Shown in pieces: positions 1,659 to 13,317 of a DNA stretch of 15,354 bases (the first letter of the stretch is position 1; each line of letters begins with the position of its first letter). The notes below the pieces were generated by a model, which made no database searches, had not been told where the DNA came from, and saw only the letters and a list, made by a program, of their open reading frames with translations. The stretch comes from a virus (taxonomy: Duplodnaviria > Heunggongvirae > Uroviricota > Caudoviricetes), in the IMG/VR virus record IMGVR_UViG_2563366828_000009. One strand, 5' to 3'. The position numbers and the translations under genes were made by a program.

Positions 1659-4130
1659 TTAAGAATCAGCCTGACTCGGGATCAGTTTTTGCCAGATAAC
1701 TGAAACGTATTTTGCCTGGTAACGGGCGTCATCAAGTGCATTATGGCGCTCACCTTCGAATTGAATAGCCGTTCTGGCATCGAAGTCTATGGCTTTCCCC
1801 AGCTCAACGATTGTGCGTACATCGCGATCGTTGTAGTAACGCCACGGGCAGGGGATCCCCTGCCGTTCGTATGAACGGCGCAAAATCGTGTTGTCGAAGT
1901 TGGCTCCATTTCCCCAGACCTGAACAAAAAATTCACCGGAGTTTTCGTCGATAAATTCCCGCAATTGTAACAGTGCATCATCTAACGGGATTTCATCGGT
2001 CATAATGGCAGATTGCGCTTCGCGTGATTGCTTAAACCACCATTTAATGGTGTCCCGATCAATGACTCCGCCAGCAGTTTCCAGATCGATAGTCTTAATA
2101 AATTCCGGTCCCATATCTCCGGTTTGCGGATCGAAAAATATTGCACCTATTGAGATGATCGGGGCATCAGGATTTTTTCCCATGGTTTCAAGGTCGATCA
2201 TTAGATGGTCACACGTCCTGCTGGTGGATGTGATTTCGTGATGACCGTTCACCTTAATTGAGTGATCTGCCGTCTCGCCAGTTTCATTATCGCTATCGTG
2301 ATGCTGATTGCCGCCAGTGTTCTCCTTGTGTGGATGTTCAGCGCCTTCCATTTTCTCCGGATCATCTTCCTGAACTTCAACCTGATACTCTTCATCGAAT
2401 GTTTCCTGGTATGTTGCGTCGCCCATTACCGCGCCACAATCAGGGCAGTTGCCGCCGCCGGTCTGACCGCAGGCGGTGCAGACTTTTTCCACTTCCTGTT
2501 GCGCCACTGATTCAGGCTGTTTCGTTTCTGGCTCGTTTTGTAACGCATTTGGGCTGTTTTGTTCCGCTTTTTGGTAGTTCCGTTCCGATTCATGCTGGTT
2601 CTGGTTCACAGAATCGCGGGTCTGGATCCCCTTAACCCATTTCGGATCATTCGGGTCACTAATCCCTTCAACAAATTCACCACGTGATGCAGCAAGCAAC
2701 TTATCGGCGTCAGGCTGGATGATATTGGCTGCCTGCATAATTTTGTTTACTTCGTCAGCGGTAACTTTTATCGGCTCTGGTTGTTCTGAATCTTCAGCGG
2801 TATCTACATTTTGCGGTAAGCCCGTGTATGTGCCATTTTTTCGGGCAAAATATTCTTCTTTTGTGATTTCAGTGGCGCCAGCAGCCAGTGCCTTATCCAG
2901 ACCAGAAAGTTTGTTTGCGCGACCGTATTTTTCTCCGTCCTTATCTGCGAAGAGGAAATAGAACGGCCCCTCACGCTCTACAGATGGTTCAGCTTCCGGC
3001 GCGGTTTCATTTTTTGGGATATCAGATACCTCAGTTTCCACTGCATCAGTTTGTGTTTCTGATGACTGGAGAACATCAACAGTGCCCAGGTCTGTTTCTT
3101 CATTCTCAAACACGCCCTTTGTCGTCAGGTATTCGCAGATATATTTGTTCAGTGCTACGGGATCTTTGTGAATGTCGATCGGACGTTCACGGACAAGGCC
3201 AAAAATAGTTTGGCGGTCGTAGCGAAGGGCATCAGGCTGTTTGCGCATTGATGCCGAGATACGCTTCCAGTCTTCGCGGTCGTTATCGATAACTTCATTT
3301 TTTGCCCAGCGATGGATGCTGCCGTCAATGTTTCCGGCATCCACATCACCAGGCCAGAGAGCGTAGGCCAGTTCGTCATCCAGTGTTTTCCATGTCTGCT
3401 TGTATTCGCGATGAATGGCAGCAATGACCGGGCTGATTTTTCCTGTTGAATTTTCAGTGTACTGTTGATTGGCTCTGGCGCGGGCGAGATCAACAACAGA
3501 CGTGTATTTTCCGGTTTCCTTGCGTTCACCTTCGCGACGTTTTTTCCAGATGCGCATCTCTGCCTGAATTTCGGGCCATTTAGCACCAGGAATACATTTA
3601 TGCTTAACCCACCCAATGGCGTGCAACTTAAGCTCCGGATACATGGCGTTAACTTCTGGCATTTTCATCAACGCTTCAACGATATGTCCGTCGAATGTTG
3701 CCATGTCTTCCTGCAACAATTCCTGTGCGCTAATAACCATATCAACGGTGATGTTTTCACATGTGTCGAACTTAACCATGACAGCGTTCTGTACTTCAGG
3801 GGCCAGCTTGTCAAAAGTGACGTTCATCGGATCGGATTCAGTCTCAACCGGGACAAAAGAAGCAGACTCCTCATCCCAGCGGTTTTCCTGCATATATTCA
3901 GCATCCCATGAATCGAGGGCAGGGCGGGGTATGCCAGGTTTATCCTCGCAGACAATAAATTTATAAGCGCAGTCCTGAGCAGCCGGATAATGTTCCAGGA
4001 ATTGCCAGTGAAATTTTGCTCGAGCACGGCGTTCGTCGCCAGCTTCAATGGCTGTGGCTACAGCCACAGCGCCTTCTTCCCTTGTTGCCAGTTCGTCAGG
4101 AATAGCGGCGCAAATAAAGACTTTACTCAT
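1659..4130 (-). CDS. RecE-like exodeoxyribonuclease VIII-family prophage protein with C-terminal DnaQ-like (DEDDh-type) exonuclease domain
   Basis: 823-aa ORF. C-terminal ~180 aa carry three motifs typical of DEDDh 3'-5' exonucleases: DHLMIDLETMG, VWGNGANFDNTIL and HNALDDARYQAKY. The middle region has acidic low-complexity stretches and a CTACGQTGGGNCPDCG zinc-ribbon-like motif, as I recall for RecE-type proteins. Position (between xis and the dicB operon) is where lambdoid exo/recE genes sit. Confidence 0.75.
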   Translation of the reverse strand: MSKVFICAAIPDELATREEGAVAVATAIEAGDERRARAKFHWQFLEHYPAAQDCAYKFIVCEDKPGIPRPALDSWDAEYMQENRWDEESASFVPVETESDPMNVTFDKLAPEVQNAVMVKFDTCENITVDMVISAQELLQEDMATFDGHIVEALMKMPEVNAMYPELKLHAIGWVKHKCIPGAKWPEIQAEMRIWKKRREGERKETGKYTSVVDLARARANQQYTENSTGKISPVIAAIHREYKQTWKTLDDELAYALWPGDVDAGNIDGSIHRWAKNEVIDNDREDWKRISASMRKQPDALRYDRQTIFGLVRERPIDIHKDPVALNKYICEYLTTKGVFENEETDLGTVDVLQSSETQTDAVETEVSDIPKNETAPEAEPSVEREGPFYFLFADKDGEKYGRANKLSGLDKALAAGATEITKEEYFARKNGTYTGLPQNVDTAEDSEQPEPIKVTADEVNKIMQAANIIQPDADKLLAASRGEFVEGISDPNDPKWVKGIQTRDSVNQNQHESERNYQKAEQNSPNALQNEPETKQPESVAQQEVEKVCTACGQTGGGNCPDCGAVMGDATYQETFDEEYQVEVQEDDPEKMEGAEHPHKENTGGNQHHDSDNETGETADHSIKVNGHHEITSTSRTCDHLMIDLETMGKNPDAPIISIGAIFFDPQTGDMGPEFIKTIDLETAGGVIDRDTIKWWFKQSREAQSAIMTDEIPLDDALLQLREFIDENSGEFFVQVWGNGANFDNTILRRSYERQGIPCPWRYYNDRDVRTIVELGKAIDFDARTAIQFEGERHNALDDARYQAKYVSVIWQKLIPSQADS

Positions 4131-4223: not shown

Positions 4224-4415
4224 TTAAAGACCTGCCGGGATTTCGATATTATACTGGTGAATAACTTTATCGACCGGGTAACAGTTACCGGGAATTTTCT
4301 GTTCGGTTGCTGCAGTCATACACTCCTGCATTGTCCTGTGAACACTGACTGCAATATCAACTGGCTCTCCGGAAACAAGAAAAACTGTCAGAACAAGCGC
4401 AAATGCTGAATTCAT
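4224..4415 (-). CDS. ydfD: YdfD-like small secreted/membrane lysis-associated protein
   Basis: 63-aa product starting MNSAFALVLTVFLVSGEPVD with a signal-peptide-like N-terminus. Its ATG overlaps the dicB stop (ATGA). Matches my recollection of Qin YdfD in sequence and position. The ORF track gives a longer 81-aa frame from an upstream ATG. Confidence 0.6.
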   Translation of the reverse strand: MNSAFALVLTVFLVSGEPVDIAVSVHRTMQECMTAATEQKIPGNCYPVDKVIHQYNIEIPAGL

Positions 4416-4600
4416 TGTGCACATCCTTTTGGCATCAGACGTAAACGAGCCAGCATTGAAACAATGCATATTTTATTTAATAGCTCCCGTTCTTGTTTTC
4501 TCTTGTTAATGGCATCTTCAGTAAATACAGGGTTACTGATAGTGACACCAATTTCAAAACAACCTTCAGACGTATTAACGTTTGGTAATAACGTTTTCAT
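4412..4600 (-). CDS. dicB: cell division inhibitor DicB
   Basis: 62-aa product MKTLLPNVNTSEGCFEIGVTISNPVFTEDAINKRKQERELLNKICIVSMLARLRLMPKGCAQ starting at the internal ATG (4598-4600), which has a GAGGA RBS 7 nt upstream. Lies directly downstream of the DicF sRNA on the same strand, as in the Qin dicB operon. Confidence 0.7.
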   Translation of the reverse strand: MKTLLPNVNTSEGCFEIGVTISNPVFTEDAINKRKQERELLNKICIVSMLARLRLMPKGCAQ

Positions 4601-4767: not shown

Positions 4768-4826
4768 TTAAAAACGGCGGCAGAGCAGTCACGGAGTAAA
4801 ACTGATACCGCCAAACGTCACCAGAA
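4768..4826 (-). ncRNA. dicF: DicF small regulatory RNA (Hfq-dependent sRNA of the dicB operon; targets ftsZ and other mRNAs)
   Basis: Reverse complement of 4767-4826 reads TTTCTGGTGACGTTTGGCGGTATCAGTTTTACTCCGTGACTGCTCTGCCGCCGTTTTTAAA, matching the DicF sequence I recall, including the 3' GC stem (GGCGG...CCGCC) and U-tract. Located between the ydfB/C-like region and dicB. Confidence 0.75.
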
Positions 4827-5086: not shown

Positions 5087-5662
5087 TTAAGGATTCATTA
5101 AGCAATGTCGCAACCACCAATAAATCCGCTTAAGAACATGAAAATTGATTACTGGTATAAAGCGCTTACAGTTGTTGGCGCTGCGTTGTTTGTCTTTAAT
5201 GGAACGTCTTTTTTTGACAGATATCCCGTTGTTCCATTGGTTTTTTTGTCCTCCGGCATCTTTTTTATTGGTTTGGGGGAGTGGATTAATCACCCTCTCA
5301 AAGTGAGATTTATTGGTCCTGGAGTTTGGACTCGTGGATATAATCGTTCTTCGTGCGCACTCGGTATCATCTTCGACATACTTGGTTGTTTCCTGATTGT
5401 TACAGGAGTCGTCAAGTTCTTCTGATGTAAAACCGCAAATGGGGCACGTAACGGGAATTTTGAAAAGCGTTTCTCCGGGTTCCAGAACAAAATTTTCTGC
5501 GGTCTGATTTTGCTTCTCATATTTGTGCTCCGCGTCATTGTGAGAGCGCATTCTTATTCTGAGTGCCTGTTTAAACTCACTGAAGCTGAGAGCTTCTTCG
5601 CCTTCGGCAAGGCCTTCGAAGTATTCTTCGTAAGCCTTTTCCATGATTGTGTCGAAATCCAT
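5087..5662 (-). CDS. YdfB/YdfC-like dicB-operon protein; extent and frame uncertain
   Basis: N-terminus MDFDTIMEKAYEEYFEGLAEGEEALSFSEFKQALRI has an AGGTGA RBS and starts next to the ydfA stop. The C-terminal half is K/R/N-rich low complexity and lies antisense to a membrane-protein-like + strand ORF (5105..5425), so the true end or frame may differ. Confidence 0.35.
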   Translation of the reverse strand: MDFDTIMEKAYEEYFEGLAEGEEALSFSEFKQALRIRMRSHNDAEHKYEKQNQTAENFVLEPGETLFKIPVTCPICGFTSEELDDSCNNQETTKYVEDDTECARRTIISTSPNSRTNKSHFERVINPLPQTNKKDAGGQKNQWNNGISVKKRRSIKDKQRSANNCKRFIPVINFHVLKRIYWWLRHCLMNP

Positions 5663-5663
5663 A

Positions 5664-5819
5664 TCACTCACCTGAGTTTCTTTCCAGCCAGCGACGGGCA
5701 CCATTTTCGGTTTTAAACGTTTTGCTTTTGGTATACGTCATTGCGGTGAACGTGCCGTCCTGGTTTGGAAACACGCCGTACACCAGAGATTCGTTGTTGC
5801 CAAGATCGATAGTATCCAT
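5664..5819 (-). CDS. ydfA: YdfA-like small protein, first gene of the dicB operon
   Basis: 51-aa product MDTIDLGNNESLVYGVFPNQDGTFTAMTYTKSKTFKTENGARRWLERNSGE from the internal ATG at 5817-5819. Sits immediately downstream of the dicA-like repressor gene and an operator copy. Confidence 0.6.
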   Translation of the reverse strand: MDTIDLGNNESLVYGVFPNQDGTFTAMTYTKSKTFKTENGARRWLERNSGE

Positions 5820-6011: not shown

Positions 6012-6419
6012 TTATTGATGCTTGTTGCGTTTGCGAGCCTCTAATAGCTCGGTGAACAGGCGATTAAAATTCTCAACGCGGGCGCGGAGTTCGCTGAGTT
6101 GTGCTTGTTGCTCTGATTTAGGAAGTGCGCGATACAAACGCAGCATCTCTAACTCATCTTCCGATAAGTCTAAGGCACTATCGAGTGAAACAGGGGGAGC
6201 TGGTGTTTTGTCCTCGTCGCCAAACAGTATCCAGGTTGGTGAACATTGCAATACCTCGGCGAGGCGATGCAAATTTTGCCCGCGCGGGGCTGTATGGTCA
6301 CTTTCCCATAATGAAATTGATGAGCCAGATACGCCAGCAGCTTTGCTTAAACCGTTTTGACTTAAACCTACCTGCTTACGTCTTTCTCTAATGCGTTGAC
6401 CTAAAGTTTTCTCGTTCAT
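6012..6419 (-). CDS. dicA: DicA-like HTH (XRE/cI-family) prophage repressor
   Basis: 135-aa product from the internal ATG at 6417-6419 (MNEKTLGQRIRERRKQVGLSQNGLSKAAGVS...LAEVLQCSPTWILFGDEDK...). Has an N-terminal helix-turn-helix and is divergent from a Cro-like gene. Closely resembles K-12 DicA as I recall it. The ORF track's longer frame (to 6470) would overlap the divergent promoter. Confidence 0.8.
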   Translation of the reverse strand: MNEKTLGQRIRERRKQVGLSQNGLSKAAGVSGSSISLWESDHTAPRGQNLHRLAEVLQCSPTWILFGDEDKTPAPPVSLDSALDLSEDELEMLRLYRALPKSEQQAQLSELRARVENFNRLFTELLEARKRNKHQ

Positions 6420-8835: not shown

Positions 8836-10623
8836 TTAAGTCTGAGCCTCACTCTCTTGGCCATAAGTGGCTTGCCAGTATCTCGCCGTAGGGTTCATTA
8901 GAATGTGCAATACAAGCCACCATGCAAAAATGCAGGGAGGTTGATTGTAGTAACCGGCAGGCACATATCCGTGAGCTAGTTGATTTCGTAAATCACCATA
9001 GATTTTATCTACCAGTAAGGCCTGAAGATTGCCAATTATGTCTACGCCGAAAGCTTCAATAATCAGTGGATTATCTAGTAATCCCTTGAGTCCATTTCGC
9101 TCTTGCGAACCGTCCCCGTGAAGCTGCGATGGTTCCTCACCTTTAATTTTAGCCACATATCTCAGACTATTTTCGATCTGGGGAATCAACACGTGGCATG
9201 CCGTCATAAAATCTCCATTGAAACCGCAAACCATACCCTTGATGAAAAACTCTTCATGCCCAAACGGGATGAAGGGATGATTGATGAACATATCGCGAAA
9301 AAACGCCTCCGAGATTGGATATTTCATTGTGATCTCATCTGTAGCAGGAATAATTTGCCCAGCTACTGCCAACTCATGGTCGATACGCATTCTCGTCATC
9401 ATTATGGGCCAAATAACTGCCCCATTTGCATCATCAATCCCCAATCCTGCGGGTATGCGAGCAAGTGTCATTCCCTCATGATCAATATGTGTTGATCCAA
9501 ACATCCAAGCTATGCTGTTGGCCTTTTGTTCTATTGCTTGAGCCTTAAGTCTCTCAATGCTGGTTGGCCGACAGACCAGCATCGCAAGTCTGAAAACCAT
9601 ATCAAACATATCTCTTCCGACTACCCGACTCTTGGCTTGATGGACAATCTCACTAATATCTTGAGGGGGAGACTGAAGGATAGACATCTGGTGACGGGAT
9701 TCGATTTGGTAATCACGCATTTCTTCATACAGCGCAAGACGTTCTATTCGGGTTCCTGGAATATTAGCCAGTGCTTCAATAGCATTCTGCATGCAGGCTG
9801 CCGAAATCATACCGCCATCTTGGAATTTTGACTCTTCCAGATGTGTATCGGCAAGAAGCCGCCAGAATTCAAACTGTGTATCTCTGTCACAGCACCTATT
9901 CGCAATCGTGATTGCGGTTTTACAGGCATCGACGGCAAATGAAAATAATTTTTGAGCCAGATAGTTTTTTGTCAGAAACAGGAGTTCCTGGGCAATAAAA
10001 GATGGCTCACTCACTTTACAGTCGATATCGAGTTGCAGGAGTCGCAGCGGATAAGGTGAATCGCCTTGTTCTCTGGTACGTTCATACTCTGCTAGTAGAT
10101 GTGCCGAAAGCTGATCAAATTCATCCCTGAAATCAGTATTCTTTCGAAAAAAACAACACAGCCTAAGCGCACGCTCTAGGCGTTCTAAAGCACTAACCCA
10201 CGTCCCTTGCGATGTCATAATAGCTATACTGGACGCATAATAAGCACGGACTGCCAGCAAAGGAAAACGGATTCCACCAATTTTACGAACCCAAAGTGTA
10301 TCAGCAATACGAGCTTGAAGTTCGGGTAGCTCTATCGTCGGGCAAAATTGAGAAAGTACCTCCAGCGACAACCCGTTAATGTCATCCGGAATTGCAGATC
10401 TACCTTGGCTGCTTTGAAAGCACGGACCAAATGGTACCTGTGGATTTTCGGGACGAAAGTGAAAACCGCAAATATGGGTTAGCAGTCTTATCTCCGCTCT
10501 TCCATCACCTAGGCTAGAAAGATACTTTGTGATATCAAAGCAGGTAACTGGCAGCTTACTCTGGATTAAGGGGGATAAATCAATAGTGTTAAGTTCGTCG
10601 AGGCTGATATTAATATCGTCCAT
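8836..10623 (-). CDS. large orphan protein (595 aa) with C-terminal HEPN-like R-x4-H motif; candidate abortive-infection / anti-phage effector
   Basis: Long uninterrupted ORF on the strand opposite all flanking phage genes. ATG at 10623 has an AAGGTGA RBS. No Walker A/P-loop visible. C-terminal DLRNQLAHG (codons 8971-8988) fits the HEPN RNase signature R-[N/Q/H]-x3-H. Flanks are AT-rich non-coding DNA (8618-8835 and 10624-10990). Confidence 0.75.
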   Translation of the reverse strand: MDDINISLDELNTIDLSPLIQSKLPVTCFDITKYLSSLGDGRAEIRLLTHICGFHFRPENPQVPFGPCFQSSQGRSAIPDDINGLSLEVLSQFCPTIELPELQARIADTLWVRKIGGIRFPLLAVRAYYASSIAIMTSQGTWVSALERLERALRLCCFFRKNTDFRDEFDQLSAHLLAEYERTREQGDSPYPLRLLQLDIDCKVSEPSFIAQELLFLTKNYLAQKLFSFAVDACKTAITIANRCCDRDTQFEFWRLLADTHLEESKFQDGGMISAACMQNAIEALANIPGTRIERLALYEEMRDYQIESRHQMSILQSPPQDISEIVHQAKSRVVGRDMFDMVFRLAMLVCRPTSIERLKAQAIEQKANSIAWMFGSTHIDHEGMTLARIPAGLGIDDANGAVIWPIMMTRMRIDHELAVAGQIIPATDEITMKYPISEAFFRDMFINHPFIPFGHEEFFIKGMVCGFNGDFMTACHVLIPQIENSLRYVAKIKGEEPSQLHGDGSQERNGLKGLLDNPLIIEAFGVDIIGNLQALLVDKIYGDLRNQLAHGYVPAGYYNQPPCIFAWWLVLHILMNPTARYWQATYGQESEAQT

Positions 10624-11086: not shown

Positions 11087-11297
11087 TTTCATATTGGCGA
11101 GGTAACGGTAGTTAAGTAGAATGGCTGCGGGTGCTTGAGGCTATCTGCCTCGGGCATGAACACCAAAGGCAGATAGAGAAAAGCCCCAGTTAACATTACG
11201 CGTCCTGCAAGACGCTTAACATTAATCTGAGGCCAATTTCATGCTAGACACATGTAGGTTAGCCTCTTACGAGCCGAAAGGCAAGGAGAAGCAGGCT

Positions 11298-11453
11298 ATG
11301 AAGCAGCAAAAGGCGATGTTAATCGCCCTGATCGTCATCTGTTTAACCGTCATAGTGACGGCACTGGTAACGAGGAAAGACCTCTGCGAGGTACGAATCC
11401 GAACCGGCCAGACGGAGGTCGCTGTCTTCACAGCTTACGAACCTGAGGAGTAA
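11298..11453 (+). CDS. hokD: Hok-family type I toxin HokD (RelF)
   Basis: 51-aa product MKQQKAMLIALIVICLTVIVTALVTRKDLCEVRIRTGQTEVAVFTAYEPEE; AAGGAGAA RBS 7 nt upstream. Structured leader with a CTATCTGCC...GGCAGATAG hairpin, and 3' fold-back hairpins plus terminator, as expected for hok mRNAs. Confidence 0.85.
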   Translation: MKQQKAMLIALIVICLTVIVTALVTRKDLCEVRIRTGQTEVAVFTAYEPEE

Positions 11454-11987: not shown

Positions 11988-12266
11988 ATGGCACGCAACG
12001 TAAAATATTACAATTCTGATAATTCGCCCGTTCTTGCCTGCACGCACGGGCGGTATTCTCACGCATTCAAGTCTGAATGGTTCCAGCACCCTCCATGCAC
12101 TGCAGAACAGGCCGAATGGCTGATTCATTCTTACCGCAGGCGCGGGTTCGAGGTTAAGAAAGCTCTCAGTCTCGACTATCGGCACTGGATAATCTCTGTC
12201 AGGCTGCCTTATTCCGAACGCCCACCACGTGCGTCCCGCACTTTCCAGCAACGGATCTGGAGGTAA
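11988..12266 (+). CDS. hypothetical protein (92 aa), translationally coupled to the downstream gene
   Basis: ATG at 11988 with a GGAGAA RBS. TAA stop at 12264-12266 sits 1 nt before the GTG start of the next gene and inside that gene's RBS. Confidence 0.5.
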   Translation: MARNVKYYNSDNSPVLACTHGRYSHAFKSEWFQHPPCTAEQAEWLIHSYRRRGFEVKKALSLDYRHWIISVRLPYSERPPRASRTFQQRIWR

Positions 12267-12267
12267 C

Positions 12268-13317
12268 GTGCGGGTATTACTTAGACCTGTTCTGGTGCCT
12301 GAGCTTGGGCTGGTGGTCCTTAAGCCGGGCCGTGAATCCATACAGATATTTCATAATCCTCGAGTGCTGGTGGAACCGGAACCAAAAAGCATGCGAAATC
12401 TGCCATCCGGAGTCGTTCCTGCCGTTCGCCAGCCGCTGGCAGAAGACAAAACATTGCTGCCGTTTTTTAGTAACGAACGGGTGATTCGTGCTACTGGCGG
12501 CGTTGGCGCATTGTCTGACTGGCTATTACGTCATGTTACATCCTGCCAGTGGCCTAATGGCGATTACCATCACACTGAAACAGTCATTCACCGTTATGGT
12601 ACCGGCGCAATGGTGTTGTGCTGGCACTGCGACAACCAACTGCGTGACCAGACATCGGAATCACTGGAGCTGCTTGCTCAACAAAATCTGACAGCATGGG
12701 TGATTGACGTCATCCGTCACGCAATAAGCGGTACGCAGGAGCGGGAATTATCTTTGGCTGAATTATCCTGGTGGGCGGTCTGCAATCAGGTGGTGGATGC
12801 ACTACCTGAGGCTGTATCGCGTCGTTCGCTGGGATTACCAGCGGAAAAAATCTGCTCGGTGTACCGCGAAAGCGACATCGTACAGGGAGAGCAGACCGCC
12901 ACCAGCATATTGAAACAACGCACAGAAAATCTTGCACCGTTGCCTTACGCCCACCAGCAACAAAAACCACCACAGGAAAAGACGGTGGTAAGCATCACCG
13001 TTGATCCAGAGTCTCCGGAATCTTTCATGAAGCTGCCTAAACGTCGCCGCTGGGTTAAGGAGAAATACACTCGTTGGGTTAAGACACAGCCGTGTGCTTG
13101 CTGCGGTATGCCAGCCGACGATCCGCATCATCTGATTGGTCACGGGCAGGGCGGAATGGGAACAAAAGCACATGATCTCTTTGTGTTGCCTTTGTGCAGA
13201 AAGCATCACAACGAGCTGCATACGGATACAGTGGCATTTGAAGAGAAGTATGGCTCCCAACTGGAGCTGATATTTCGTTTTATCGATCGCGCGCTGGCAA
13301 CTGGCGTACTGGCGTAA
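12268..13317 (+). CDS. ydfU: YdfU-like prophage protein with C-terminal HNH-type Cys/His motif
   Basis: 349-aa product from the GTG at 12268, preceded by GGAGGT at 12259-12264. C-terminal QPCACCGMPADDPHHLIGHGQGG...LPLCRKHHNELH resembles HNH/zinc-finger nuclease-like motifs. Lies just upstream of Q, as ydfU does relative to quuQ in Qin. Confidence 0.65.
   Translation: MRVLLRPVLVPELGLVVLKPGRESIQIFHNPRVLVEPEPKSMRNLPSGVVPAVRQPLAEDKTLLPFFSNERVIRATGGVGALSDWLLRHVTSCQWPNGDYHHTETVIHRYGTGAMVLCWHCDNQLRDQTSESLELLAQQNLTAWVIDVIRHAISGTQERELSLAELSWWAVCNQVVDALPEAVSRRSLGLPAEKICSVYRESDIVQGEQTATSILKQRTENLAPLPYAHQQQKPPQEKTVVSITVDPESPESFMKLPKRRRWVKEKYTRWVKTQPCACCGMPADDPHHLIGHGQGGMGTKAHDLFVLPLCRKHHNELHTDTVAFEEKYGSQLELIFRFIDRALATGVLA

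Follow-up and report, generated by a model that had tools for sequence, protein, structure and literature searches.

The 15,354-nucleotide stretch analyzed here, IMG/VR record IMGVR_UViG_2563366828_000009 (hereafter the window), covers the left arm together with the early region of a lambdoid Escherichia coli prophage integrated beside rspB/ynfA. At positions 1659-4130 of its minus strand it encodes an 823-residue protein in which a divergent RecE-type scaffold is joined to a predicted exonuclease of the DEDDh (DnaQ-like) type. The 5'-3' PD-(D/E)XK nuclease head of RecE thus appears to have been swapped for a DEDDh domain of the DexA/Rv2179c family, and no annealase gene was detected in the window. 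On balance, though with only moderate confidence, we favor the view that the protein is a scaffold-tethered, annealase-independent 3'-5' DNA exonuclease that acts at DNA ends during early lytic growth, and that it is not a RecET-type recombinase.

Architecture of the 1659-4130 gene

The open reading frame (ORF) occupies exactly 1659-4130 on the minus strand and specifies 823 residues from an ATG start, with a GAGG sequence about 11 nt upstream. RefSeq annotates the same coding sequence as "exonuclease" (WP_000048333.1) and names the family "exonuclease" or "3'-5' exonuclease"; many family members bear the NCBI label "3'-5' exoribonuclease", and the 823-residue protein matches PHROG 2082 over its full length. 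Relatives now carry the Pfam labels YdfE_N (PF27430), YdfE_C (PF27432) and Rv2179c-like, so that the annotation in Pfam, RefSeq and PHROGs is already correct at the domain level. No internal repeats were found within the gene. Its parts, all on the minus strand, are as follows.

1659-4130 (stop codon 1659-1661): whole gene, RecE-scaffold/DEDDh exonuclease, intact ydfE (ORF list, RefSeq, PHROG 2082)
3360-4130: N-terminal scaffold domain, residues 1-257, YdfE_N type, a small alpha/beta unit followed by a helical bundle (AlphaFold2, hhalign)
2721-3359: middle scaffold, residues 258-470, YdfE_C type, aligned with RecE from residue 278 onward and conserved in relatives (BLASTP, AlphaFold2)
2256-2720: RecE-like acidic region M2, residues 471-625, the part most similar to K-12 RecE (residues 453-591; BLASTP)
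2436-2480: CxxC-x7-CxxC motif, residues 551-565, CTACGQTGGGNCPDC, read from the sequence and aligned with CNACGQTGGDNCPDC of RecE
2205-2255: junction linker, residues 626-642, between the end of RecE homology (625) and the start of the Pfam domain (642)
1662-2204: predicted DEDDh 3'-5' exonuclease domain, residues 643-823, DexA/Rv2179c-like (Pfam PF16473, PDB 8KEL, alignments)
Catalytic codons: D646, 2193-2195; E648, 2187-2189; D746, 1893-1895; H796, 1743-1745; D801, 1728-1730

A predicted DEDDh exonuclease head with a complete active site

Residues 642-813 match PF16473, the Rv2179c-like 3'-5' exoribonuclease domain, with an E-value of 1.6e-66 and 223.8 bits against a cut-off of 27, and the match runs essentially end to end, over model positions 2-177 of 177. 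Searching solved structures by sequence yielded 8KEL and 8KEN alone (E=1.4e-6), two entries for a 227-residue "exodeoxyribonuclease" with the sequence of T4 dexA, determined by Kang et al. 2025 (PMC12153337). The three DEDDh motifs are all present, with D646 and E648 in MIDLET, D746 in NFD, and H796 and D801 in HNALDD. In an alignment that included T4 DexA, a stand-alone E. coli prophage homologue resembling EcD, and gp26 of phage mEp460, these five residues fall in register with DexA D7, E9, the motif-II Asp, H186 and D191, and they are kept in all 67 in-register variants. Beyond DexA, the head has a weak match to PF00929 (RNase_T; E=0.0027, below the Pfam threshold) and weak profile matches to the exonuclease (proofreading) domains of DnaQ and PolC. 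These comparisons confirm that the C-terminal domain is a predicted DEDDh exonuclease whose active site is complete, as the initial annotation had read from the three motifs. A PD-(D/E)XK nuclease at the C-terminus was considered and rejected: there is no PF12684 match in the protein and no alignment to RecE residues 600-866.

A divergent RecE scaffold

The remainder of the protein has a different ancestry. In a BLASTP comparison, residues 262-625 align with residues 278-591 of K-12 RecE (39% identity over 364 residues, E=2e-61), and identity is far higher over the last ~150 of these (473-625), where the two proteins are near-identical; nothing aligned past residue 625 of the window protein or residue 591 of RecE. 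The similarity at the DNA level is confined to window positions 2264-2706, which are 78% identical to Rac recE. Upstream of the BLASTP alignment, the Pfam model of the N-terminal exonuclease VIII domain, PF06630, has no match in the window protein. A profile-profile comparison with hhalign nevertheless pairs YdfE_N with the RecE N-domain at 97.7% probability (E=1.4e-12, 188 columns), and by this measure YdfE_N is a remote homologue of the RecE N-domain that Pfam treats as a separate family. Together, the profile homology and the BLASTP alignment lead us to regard the whole of the first 625 residues as a divergent RecE scaffold.

An AlphaFold2 model of residues 1-470, built from an alignment of 128 sequences, has a mean pLDDT (predicted local distance difference test score) of 77. 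Its confident units cover residues 1-204, 247-340 and 388-432 and are separated by acidic linkers of low confidence, so that the middle scaffold consists of a helical unit (247-340), an acidic disordered linker (344-384) and a small beta/alpha unit (388-432). A Foldseek search of the scaffold model against the PDB gave no match at E<=1e-3. The CxxC-x7-CxxC motif farther along the chain is a putative zinc ribbon shared with RecE, its metal binding being suggested by the cysteine pattern. The lack of an informative structural relative for the scaffold accords with the literature, where the N-terminal domain of RecE is described as of unknown function even though full-length RecE improves linear-linear recombination (PMC11611040).

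The annealase gene follows the head, not the scaffold

Canonical RecE works with an annealase, and we found none here. Six-frame tblastn searches of the window gave no match to RecT, lambda Bet, P22 Erf or a Rad52-like domain, nor to the further queries lambda Exo, Gam and Abc2. Also negative with this query set were the vB_EcoS-813R8 locus, the mEp460 left arm and the complete 45.3-kb sequence of HannyBb, an isolated phage that has the gene at 98.9% identity and with its neighbors in matching order. In the window, no annealase emerged when the remaining left-arm ORFs were scanned against Pfam and PHROGs. A hidden annealase elsewhere in the window or the phage is therefore rejected at the sensitivity available to Pfam, PHROGs, tblastn and the HannyBb annotation. 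The observation in the initial annotation that no recT- or bet-like gene lies between xis and the dicB operon holds: ydfD and xis flank the exonuclease gene directly, and tblastn was negative.

We also typed 160 IMG/VR prophage loci, recovered by searching either with the shared middle region or with a relative that joins a RecE-type N-domain to a DEDDh head. RecT was absent from all 80 loci with the architecture of the window and from all 44 in which a RecE-type N-domain is joined to a DEDDh head, and the tblastn queries found no annealase in any of these 124 DEDDh-type loci. Where the head is of the PD-(D/E)XK type, as in canonical RecE, recT lies immediately downstream in 33 of 37 loci (the Rac order being recE-recT-ralR-rcbA-xis-int); recT also follows in distant PD-(D/E)XK relatives from Serratia and two other genome records, and three Proteus PD-(D/E)XK loci had no RecT match. 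Since recT accompanies the PD-(D/E)XK head but occurs in none of the 124 DEDDh loci, the annealase gene tracks the head rather than the scaffold. A rationale for this exclusion is that a 3'-5' exonuclease removes the very 3' tails that annealases use, in keeping with the ~65-70-fold gain in RecET and Red linear-DNA assembly when host ExoI is deleted (PMC13048471). Judged by its sequence, the window protein is thus not part of a two-component exonuclease-annealase recombinase of the Red, RecET or SynExo kind, as it is of the 3'-5' type and has no adjacent annealase.

Interchangeable heads on a shared platform

The scaffold occurs with more than one kind of head. A library-wide HMMER search with residues 1-512 returned only 221 representative clusters, and the named relatives retrieved later were all from Enterobacterales. 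Domain typing of the long cluster members resolved five combinations:

Combination 1: YdfE_N scaffold with a DEDDh head, the window type
Combination 2: YdfE_N scaffold with a RecE PD-(D/E)XK head
Combination 3: RecE_N scaffold with a DEDDh head
Combination 4: RecE_N scaffold with a PD-(D/E)XK head, canonical RecE
Combination 5: YdfE_N scaffold with a conserved C-terminal domain of ~260 residues that has no Pfam match

The C-terminal domain of the fifth combination contains the motif …KKSLTDAIKKALSxLGFSADVxLGLYD…, which is suggestive of RAD52, and a profile search of the PDB by sequence with this domain found nothing. An AlphaFold2 model of one member, P0131 (mean pLDDT 75.8), gave just two Foldseek matches in the PDB at E<=1e-3, and both were to the annealing domain of human RAD52 (5JRB/1KN0; E=1e-5 and 4.5e-5, probability 1.00), with alignments of 181-182 columns including gaps to targets of 184-188 residues. 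Most of the NCBI-named proteins among 120 listed relatives are called "exodeoxyribonuclease VIII". For the YdfE-scaffold/Rad52-like group this name looks like an annotation error, the structural model suggesting instead an undescribed annealase fusion. A mixed full-length alignment of the family was set aside, since MAFFT had paired the DEDDh domain with the Rad52-like domain, to which it is unrelated.

Combination-5 proteins (P0128, P0131, P0132 and P0270-P0386; loci L195/L196 6001-8340) are ~700-800 residues long and come from Enterobacter, Klebsiella, Citrobacter, Pantoea, Kosakonia, Salmonella and E. albertii. The E. albertii gene, the sole neighborhood of this type that was examined, follows kilR and a weak Gam match, precedes a Sipho_Gp157 gene, and so sits where lambda has bet and exo; no nuclease was seen in that neighborhood.

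Stand-alone exonucleases of ~190 residues from the same subfamily as the window head also exist, in the lambdoid and P22-like phages mEp460, CurroJimenez, g341c and PSTCR8lys. The mEp460 gene (L004 4998-5570), the only one of this group whose neighborhood was examined, lies directly upstream of xis. It therefore occupies the position of the fused head, which suggests that a deletion between a recE-type gene and a stand-alone gene of this kind gave rise to the fusion.

In sum, one of three kinds of head sits on this scaffold platform: a nuclease of 5'-3' type, a nuclease of 3'-5' type, or an annealase. What lies beyond existing annotation is this pattern of head swapping, with its strict exclusion of annealase genes from DEDDh loci, together with the Rad52-like sister fusions.

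The window gene is an intact ydfE under purifying selection

Residues 1-256 of the window protein (positions 3363-4130) are 100% identical to the Qin pseudogene ydfE of K-12 MG1655 (b1577; L033:18079-18999), which is truncated by IS2E after its first 256 codons. It follows from this identity that the window gene is an intact ydfE and that the K-12 Qin prophage once carried the exonuclease.

The gene is not rare. Among 5426 complete E. coli genomes, 4800 contain a match to it and 3537 (~65%) contain at least 80% of its length; matching places, full or partial gene copies included, number two per genome in the median and ten at most. The top protein cluster has 23,183 members, and the length is conserved at 823-831 residues across thousands of sequences. 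It is thus among the commonest of E. coli prophage genes, and its exonuclease domain has already been named by Pfam and RefSeq.

Purifying selection acts on every module. Computed against 44 distinct 823-residue variants, the ratio of nonsynonymous to synonymous substitution (dN/dS) is 0.13 for the N-domain, 0.32 for the middle scaffold and 0.31 for acidic region M2. The head has values of 0.11-0.21 at synonymous divergences (pS) of 0.16-0.50. The pooled value for the head among near-identical copies (IMG/VR loci L034-L113), which differ by very few synonymous changes, is 0.75. Relaxed selection on the head was rejected as an explanation of this figure, given the values of 0.11-0.21 at higher divergence, and recent diversifying change in the head could be entertained, but 0.75 is probably an effect of low divergence instead.

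The locus and its other genes

The prophage is lambdoid and of the Qin type, and the exonuclease ORF lies at the far end of its leftward early operon. The annotated minus-strand elements run repressor, ydfA, a hypothetical protein of 191-205 residues, DicF, dicB, ydfD, the 1659-4130 ORF, xis and int. The annotated neighbors are listed below, all on the minus strand.

6012-6419: repressor
between the repressor and the 191-205-residue hypothetical protein: ydfA
4775-4826: DicF small RNA, in the same operon as the exonuclease ORF (Rfam RF00039, 72.5 bits against a gathering score of 48)
4412-4600: dicB cell-division inhibitor, in the same leftward early operon (RefSeq; Pfam DicB)
4224-4415: ydfD, immediate upstream neighbor of the exonuclease ORF (RefSeq; Pfam DUF1482)
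1335-1586: excisionase xis, immediate downstream neighbor (RefSeq; Pfam DUF1233)
20-1300: tyrosine integrase int, at the left-arm end of the prophage beside rspB (RefSeq; Pfam Phage_integrase)

The gap of 72 nt between the exonuclease stop codon and xis is free of genes, and the order dicB-ydfD-exonuclease is kept in 76 of 80 loci of the window architecture and 38 of 44 loci with a RecE-type N-domain. At least 80% of the window is found at one place in 271 complete E. coli genomes, and in the best ten genome records listed the window match is 100.0% identical over 98%.

Several other genes in the window merit a brief record. The hypothetical protein of 191-205 residues (5087-5704, minus strand) has a CPICG...C cysteine cluster, is conserved in HannyBb and falls in PHROG 35040, a family of unknown function; neither Pfam nor PADLOC gave a match. 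Between the replication genes and hokD, on the opposite strand, lies a gene for a 595-residue DUF7380/DUF4209 protein (8836-10623, minus strand) that matches the PADLOC candidate defense family PDC-S39 (E=8e-103); by this match it is probably a prophage-borne defense cargo gene. The sok antisense RNA of the hokD toxin locus is recognized by Rfam above the gathering score (11129-11303, plus strand). Just upstream of the gene for the Q antiterminator, ydfU (DUF968; 12229-13317, plus strand) matches a PHROG annotated as HNH endonuclease (E=9e-170).

Proposed function and competing explanations

If the view we favor is correct, the head would be a Mg2+-dependent 3'-5' exonuclease that, by analogy with its family, uses two-metal catalysis through D646, E648, D746 and D801 with H796 as general base. 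From its place in the early operon, the protein would be made after prophage induction or infection. The scaffold may bring the flexibly tethered head to the DNA ends or to the host partner that RecE addresses, and the head would there trim 3' ends or 3' tails, where RecE would produce them. Such an activity might serve to trim 3' tails in phage replication or in recombination with host functions, to degrade fragments of host or competitor DNA, or to salvage nucleotides, as for DexA.

Several considerations weigh against this proposal. The fold of the head is assigned from profile and sequence matches only, the idea of the scaffold as a targeting module comes purely from domain shuffling, and the timing of expression is deduced from gene order; a search for a promoter or terminator belonging to the 1659-4130 gene gave no signal above chance. 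An annealase may be encoded elsewhere in the host, for example in another prophage, beyond the 15-kb window. The Pfam family is named for an exoribonuclease, Rv2179c, so an RNA substrate is conceivable. Our literature search found no paper that discusses the window protein or links ydfE to an exonuclease.

A broader extension of the proposal, which we offer tentatively, is that the N-terminal ~600 residues of RecE and YdfE are a targeting platform that works independently of the head it carries, and that the DEDDh version defines an annealase-independent pathway of end processing. The binding target of the platform would be a DNA end, a host protein or some replication structure, and the heads mounted on it would be interchangeable: a Rad52-like annealase, a 5'-3' nuclease accompanied by RecT, or a DEDDh nuclease of 3'-5' type that never has an annealase beside it. 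One use of the DEDDh version could be the removal of 3' tails so as to block RecA- or annealase-dependent repair or recombination by the host or by competing phages.

Among the alternatives, the one that survives best is a defense against superinfection of the HREX/EcD type, in which the head would digest the modified DNA of T-even-like phages, carrying 5-hydroxymethylcytosine (5hmC) or similar bases, and spare host DNA. EcD, a stand-alone E. coli homologue of DexA, is reported to digest the T4 genome and, from a plasmid, to protect cells (PMC12153337), and a protein of the EcD type is 38% identical to the window C-domain. The window also holds the PDC-S39 candidate defense gene, so this prophage does carry accessory cargo. 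However, the three positions linked to EcD activity all differ: D718 stands in place of the tetramer-breaking A78, Y766 in place of Trp, and K779 in place of Glu or Asp, the last lying in a loop that is the least certain part of the alignment (EcD E145). The gene sits inside a repressed early operon rather than in a moron position with a promoter of its own, and the scaffold of 640 residues has no explanation in this model. EcD is itself an early-operon gene of a P2-like prophage, and its native role may also be in phage DNA metabolism. We consider the defense model unlikely. Membership of the window protein in the EcD/HREX group was rejected on the three signature positions, and the candidate that it is a known defense protein was rejected as it has no PADLOC match.

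A second alternative retains a link to annealing: the head would process ends for recombination carried out with an annealase supplied in trans, such as a RecT or Bet from another prophage, or with host RecA/RecFOR. The scaffold is homologous to that of RecE and is fused to a Rad52-like annealase in sister prophages, E. coli genomes often hold several lambdoid prophages, as the number of matching places per genome indicates, and T4 DexA is stated to act in intron homing, a double-strand-break repair process (PMC12153337). Against this, a 3'-5' exonuclease destroys the 3' tails on which annealases and RecA depend; deletion of ExoI raises linear-DNA assembly by RecET and Red ~65-70-fold (PMC13048471). 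A linked annealase is also missing from all 124 DEDDh loci and from the complete phage, and recT is tightly linked to the PD-(D/E)XK head. Recombination of this kind strikes us as improbable. Even so, the family is tied to the biology of DNA ends or recombination by sister prophages whose scaffold carries the RecE nuclease or a Rad52-like annealase. The suggestion in the initial annotation that the protein serves in something other than recombineering is therefore correct insofar as the protein is not one of a RecET-type pair, and too sweeping insofar as its first 625 residues are homologous to the scaffold of RecE.

The third alternative concerns the substrate. The head could be an exoribonuclease that acts on RNA 3' ends, for example on host or phage transcripts, or by processing or turning over DicF, which is co-transcribed. 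The Pfam description of PF16473, based on M. tuberculosis Rv2179c, is of a 3'-5' exoribonuclease domain, the NCBI label of many members follows that description, and DicF belongs to the same operon. We nevertheless suspect that DNA is a more likely substrate than RNA because the closest characterized relatives, T4 DexA and E. coli EcD (the nearest characterized relative in E. coli), are DNases, because the weak matches beyond DexA are to proofreading domains of the DnaQ/PolC type, leaving no other sequence-detectable solved relative, and because the fusion partner is the scaffold of a DNA exonuclease. An RNA-directed role accordingly commands little credence from us.

It is still harder to credit an anti-defense nuclease that degrades a nucleic-acid part or signal of host immunity, such as retron multicopy single-stranded DNA (msDNA), guide or primed DNA, or linear oligonucleotide signals. 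The position in an early operon is typical of counter-defense genes. Yet no homology to described anti-defense proteins was found, no link emerged from the literature, and the large RecE scaffold has no place in the model. DEDDh exonucleases need a free 3' end, which cyclic-nucleotide signals do not offer. The initial annotation had raised a possible anti-defense role, and nothing we found points to it: the protein has no PADLOC match, and the positions of 5hmC recognition in EcD are not kept. Finally, a functionless accident, in which a deletion joined a shortened recE to a stand-alone exonuclease gene lying downstream and the chimera has since been carried passively, is barely tenable: the stand-alone mEp460 homologue (60% identical) in the same position directly upstream of xis and a junction exactly at the RecE domain boundary make a fusion event plausible as the origin, but purifying selection acts on all modules, the length is conserved at 823-831 residues, the gene is present in a viable isolated phage, and the occurrence of the DEDDh head with a RecE-type N-domain and of the YdfE N-domain with other heads points to shuffling that was repeated and retained.

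The tethered 3'-5' DNA exonuclease that we favor would have consequences beyond this one prophage. A predicted phage exonuclease of such abundance could influence prophage induction or phage-phage competition, and it could also influence recombination between co-resident prophages, a matter relevant to the mosaicism of Stx phages. The exchange of heads also offers a way into the function of the N-terminal two thirds of RecE, a region long left unexplained that improves linear-linear recombineering. Should the broader platform idea prove true as well, the DEDDh version found in about two thirds of E. coli genomes would constitute a distinct pathway of end processing in lambdoid phages.

Comparison with known systems

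The closest comparison for the scaffold is RecE (exonuclease VIII) of the K-12 Rac prophage. The two proteins share a homologous scaffold, a similar size (823 versus 866 residues) and a place in a leftward early operon upstream of xis and int. They differ in that K-12 RecE has a PF06630 N-terminal domain and a PF12684 PD-(D/E)XK domain at residues 615-850, inside a lambda-Exo-like 5'-3' nuclease region of about residues 564-866, whereas the window protein has neither at Pfam thresholds; the polarity of the exonuclease is expected to be opposite, and neither recT, ralR nor rcbA lies downstream of the window gene. The NCBIfam RecE model NF007259 scores 281.1 bits against a cut-off of 1269 and is matched only at model positions 271-602. 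On nuclease domain, score threshold and recT partner alike, the window protein is not a member of the RecE equivalog. The initial annotation had suggested that this may be a different type of prophage nuclease from RecE and lambda Exo: PF16473 rather than a PD-(D/E)XK domain accounts for the C-terminus, and RecE homology extends only to residue 625, so that the profile, BLASTP and tblastn results all bear the suggestion out.

For the head, the reference is T4 DexA, a phage-encoded 3'-5' DNA exonuclease (PMC12153337) of the same Pfam family, with the same DEDDh residues and 24% identity over the domain. DexA is a free-standing protein of 227 residues with extra loops, whereas here the domain is the C-terminal head of a protein of 823. 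The two residues of DexA that recognize 5hmC, W152, which stacks on the modified base (PMC12153337), and D169, correspond to Y766 and K779 in the window protein. DnaQ/epsilon, RNase T and ExoI have the same set of catalytic motifs, but the window head belongs to the PF16473 subfamily in a phage context and its PF00929 match is below threshold.

EcD of the HREX system likewise has a DexA-family DEDDh domain and resides in an E. coli prophage early operon. It differs in being a stand-alone protein of ~189 residues from a P2-like prophage, with A78, W132 and E145 where the window protein has D718, Y766 and K779; the window protein thereby retains, as D718, the tetramer-forming Asp of DexA (D90). 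We recovered the EcD-type ORF of 189 residues through a published primer sequence (start MIDTET) and the Ala at position 78. The gene (L029 6401-6991, minus strand; also in L008, L013, L023, L024 and L026) lies in a P2-like prophage early operon with int on one side and, on the other, a cox-like gene, DUF4761, the EcD-type gene itself, a Dam methylase of the D12 class, DUF4406 and gpA, in that order.

The closest relative of the head is gp26 of mEp460, which has relatives in SfV-like and P22-like phages. It shares with the window gene the place directly upstream of xis at the left-arm end and a left arm that contains no annealase. Unlike the window protein, gp26 has 190 residues and no scaffold, starts 3 residues before motif I, carries Trp at the position of Y766, and is uncharacterized. 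The YdfE-scaffold/Rad52-like proteins complete the series from the other side. They have the same YdfE_N and YdfE_C units, with 30-49% identity over the first 470 residues, and a similar place in the early operon, and differ in that their C-terminal head is neither a DEDDh domain nor any other nuclease but a domain whose model matches only the annealing domain of RAD52.

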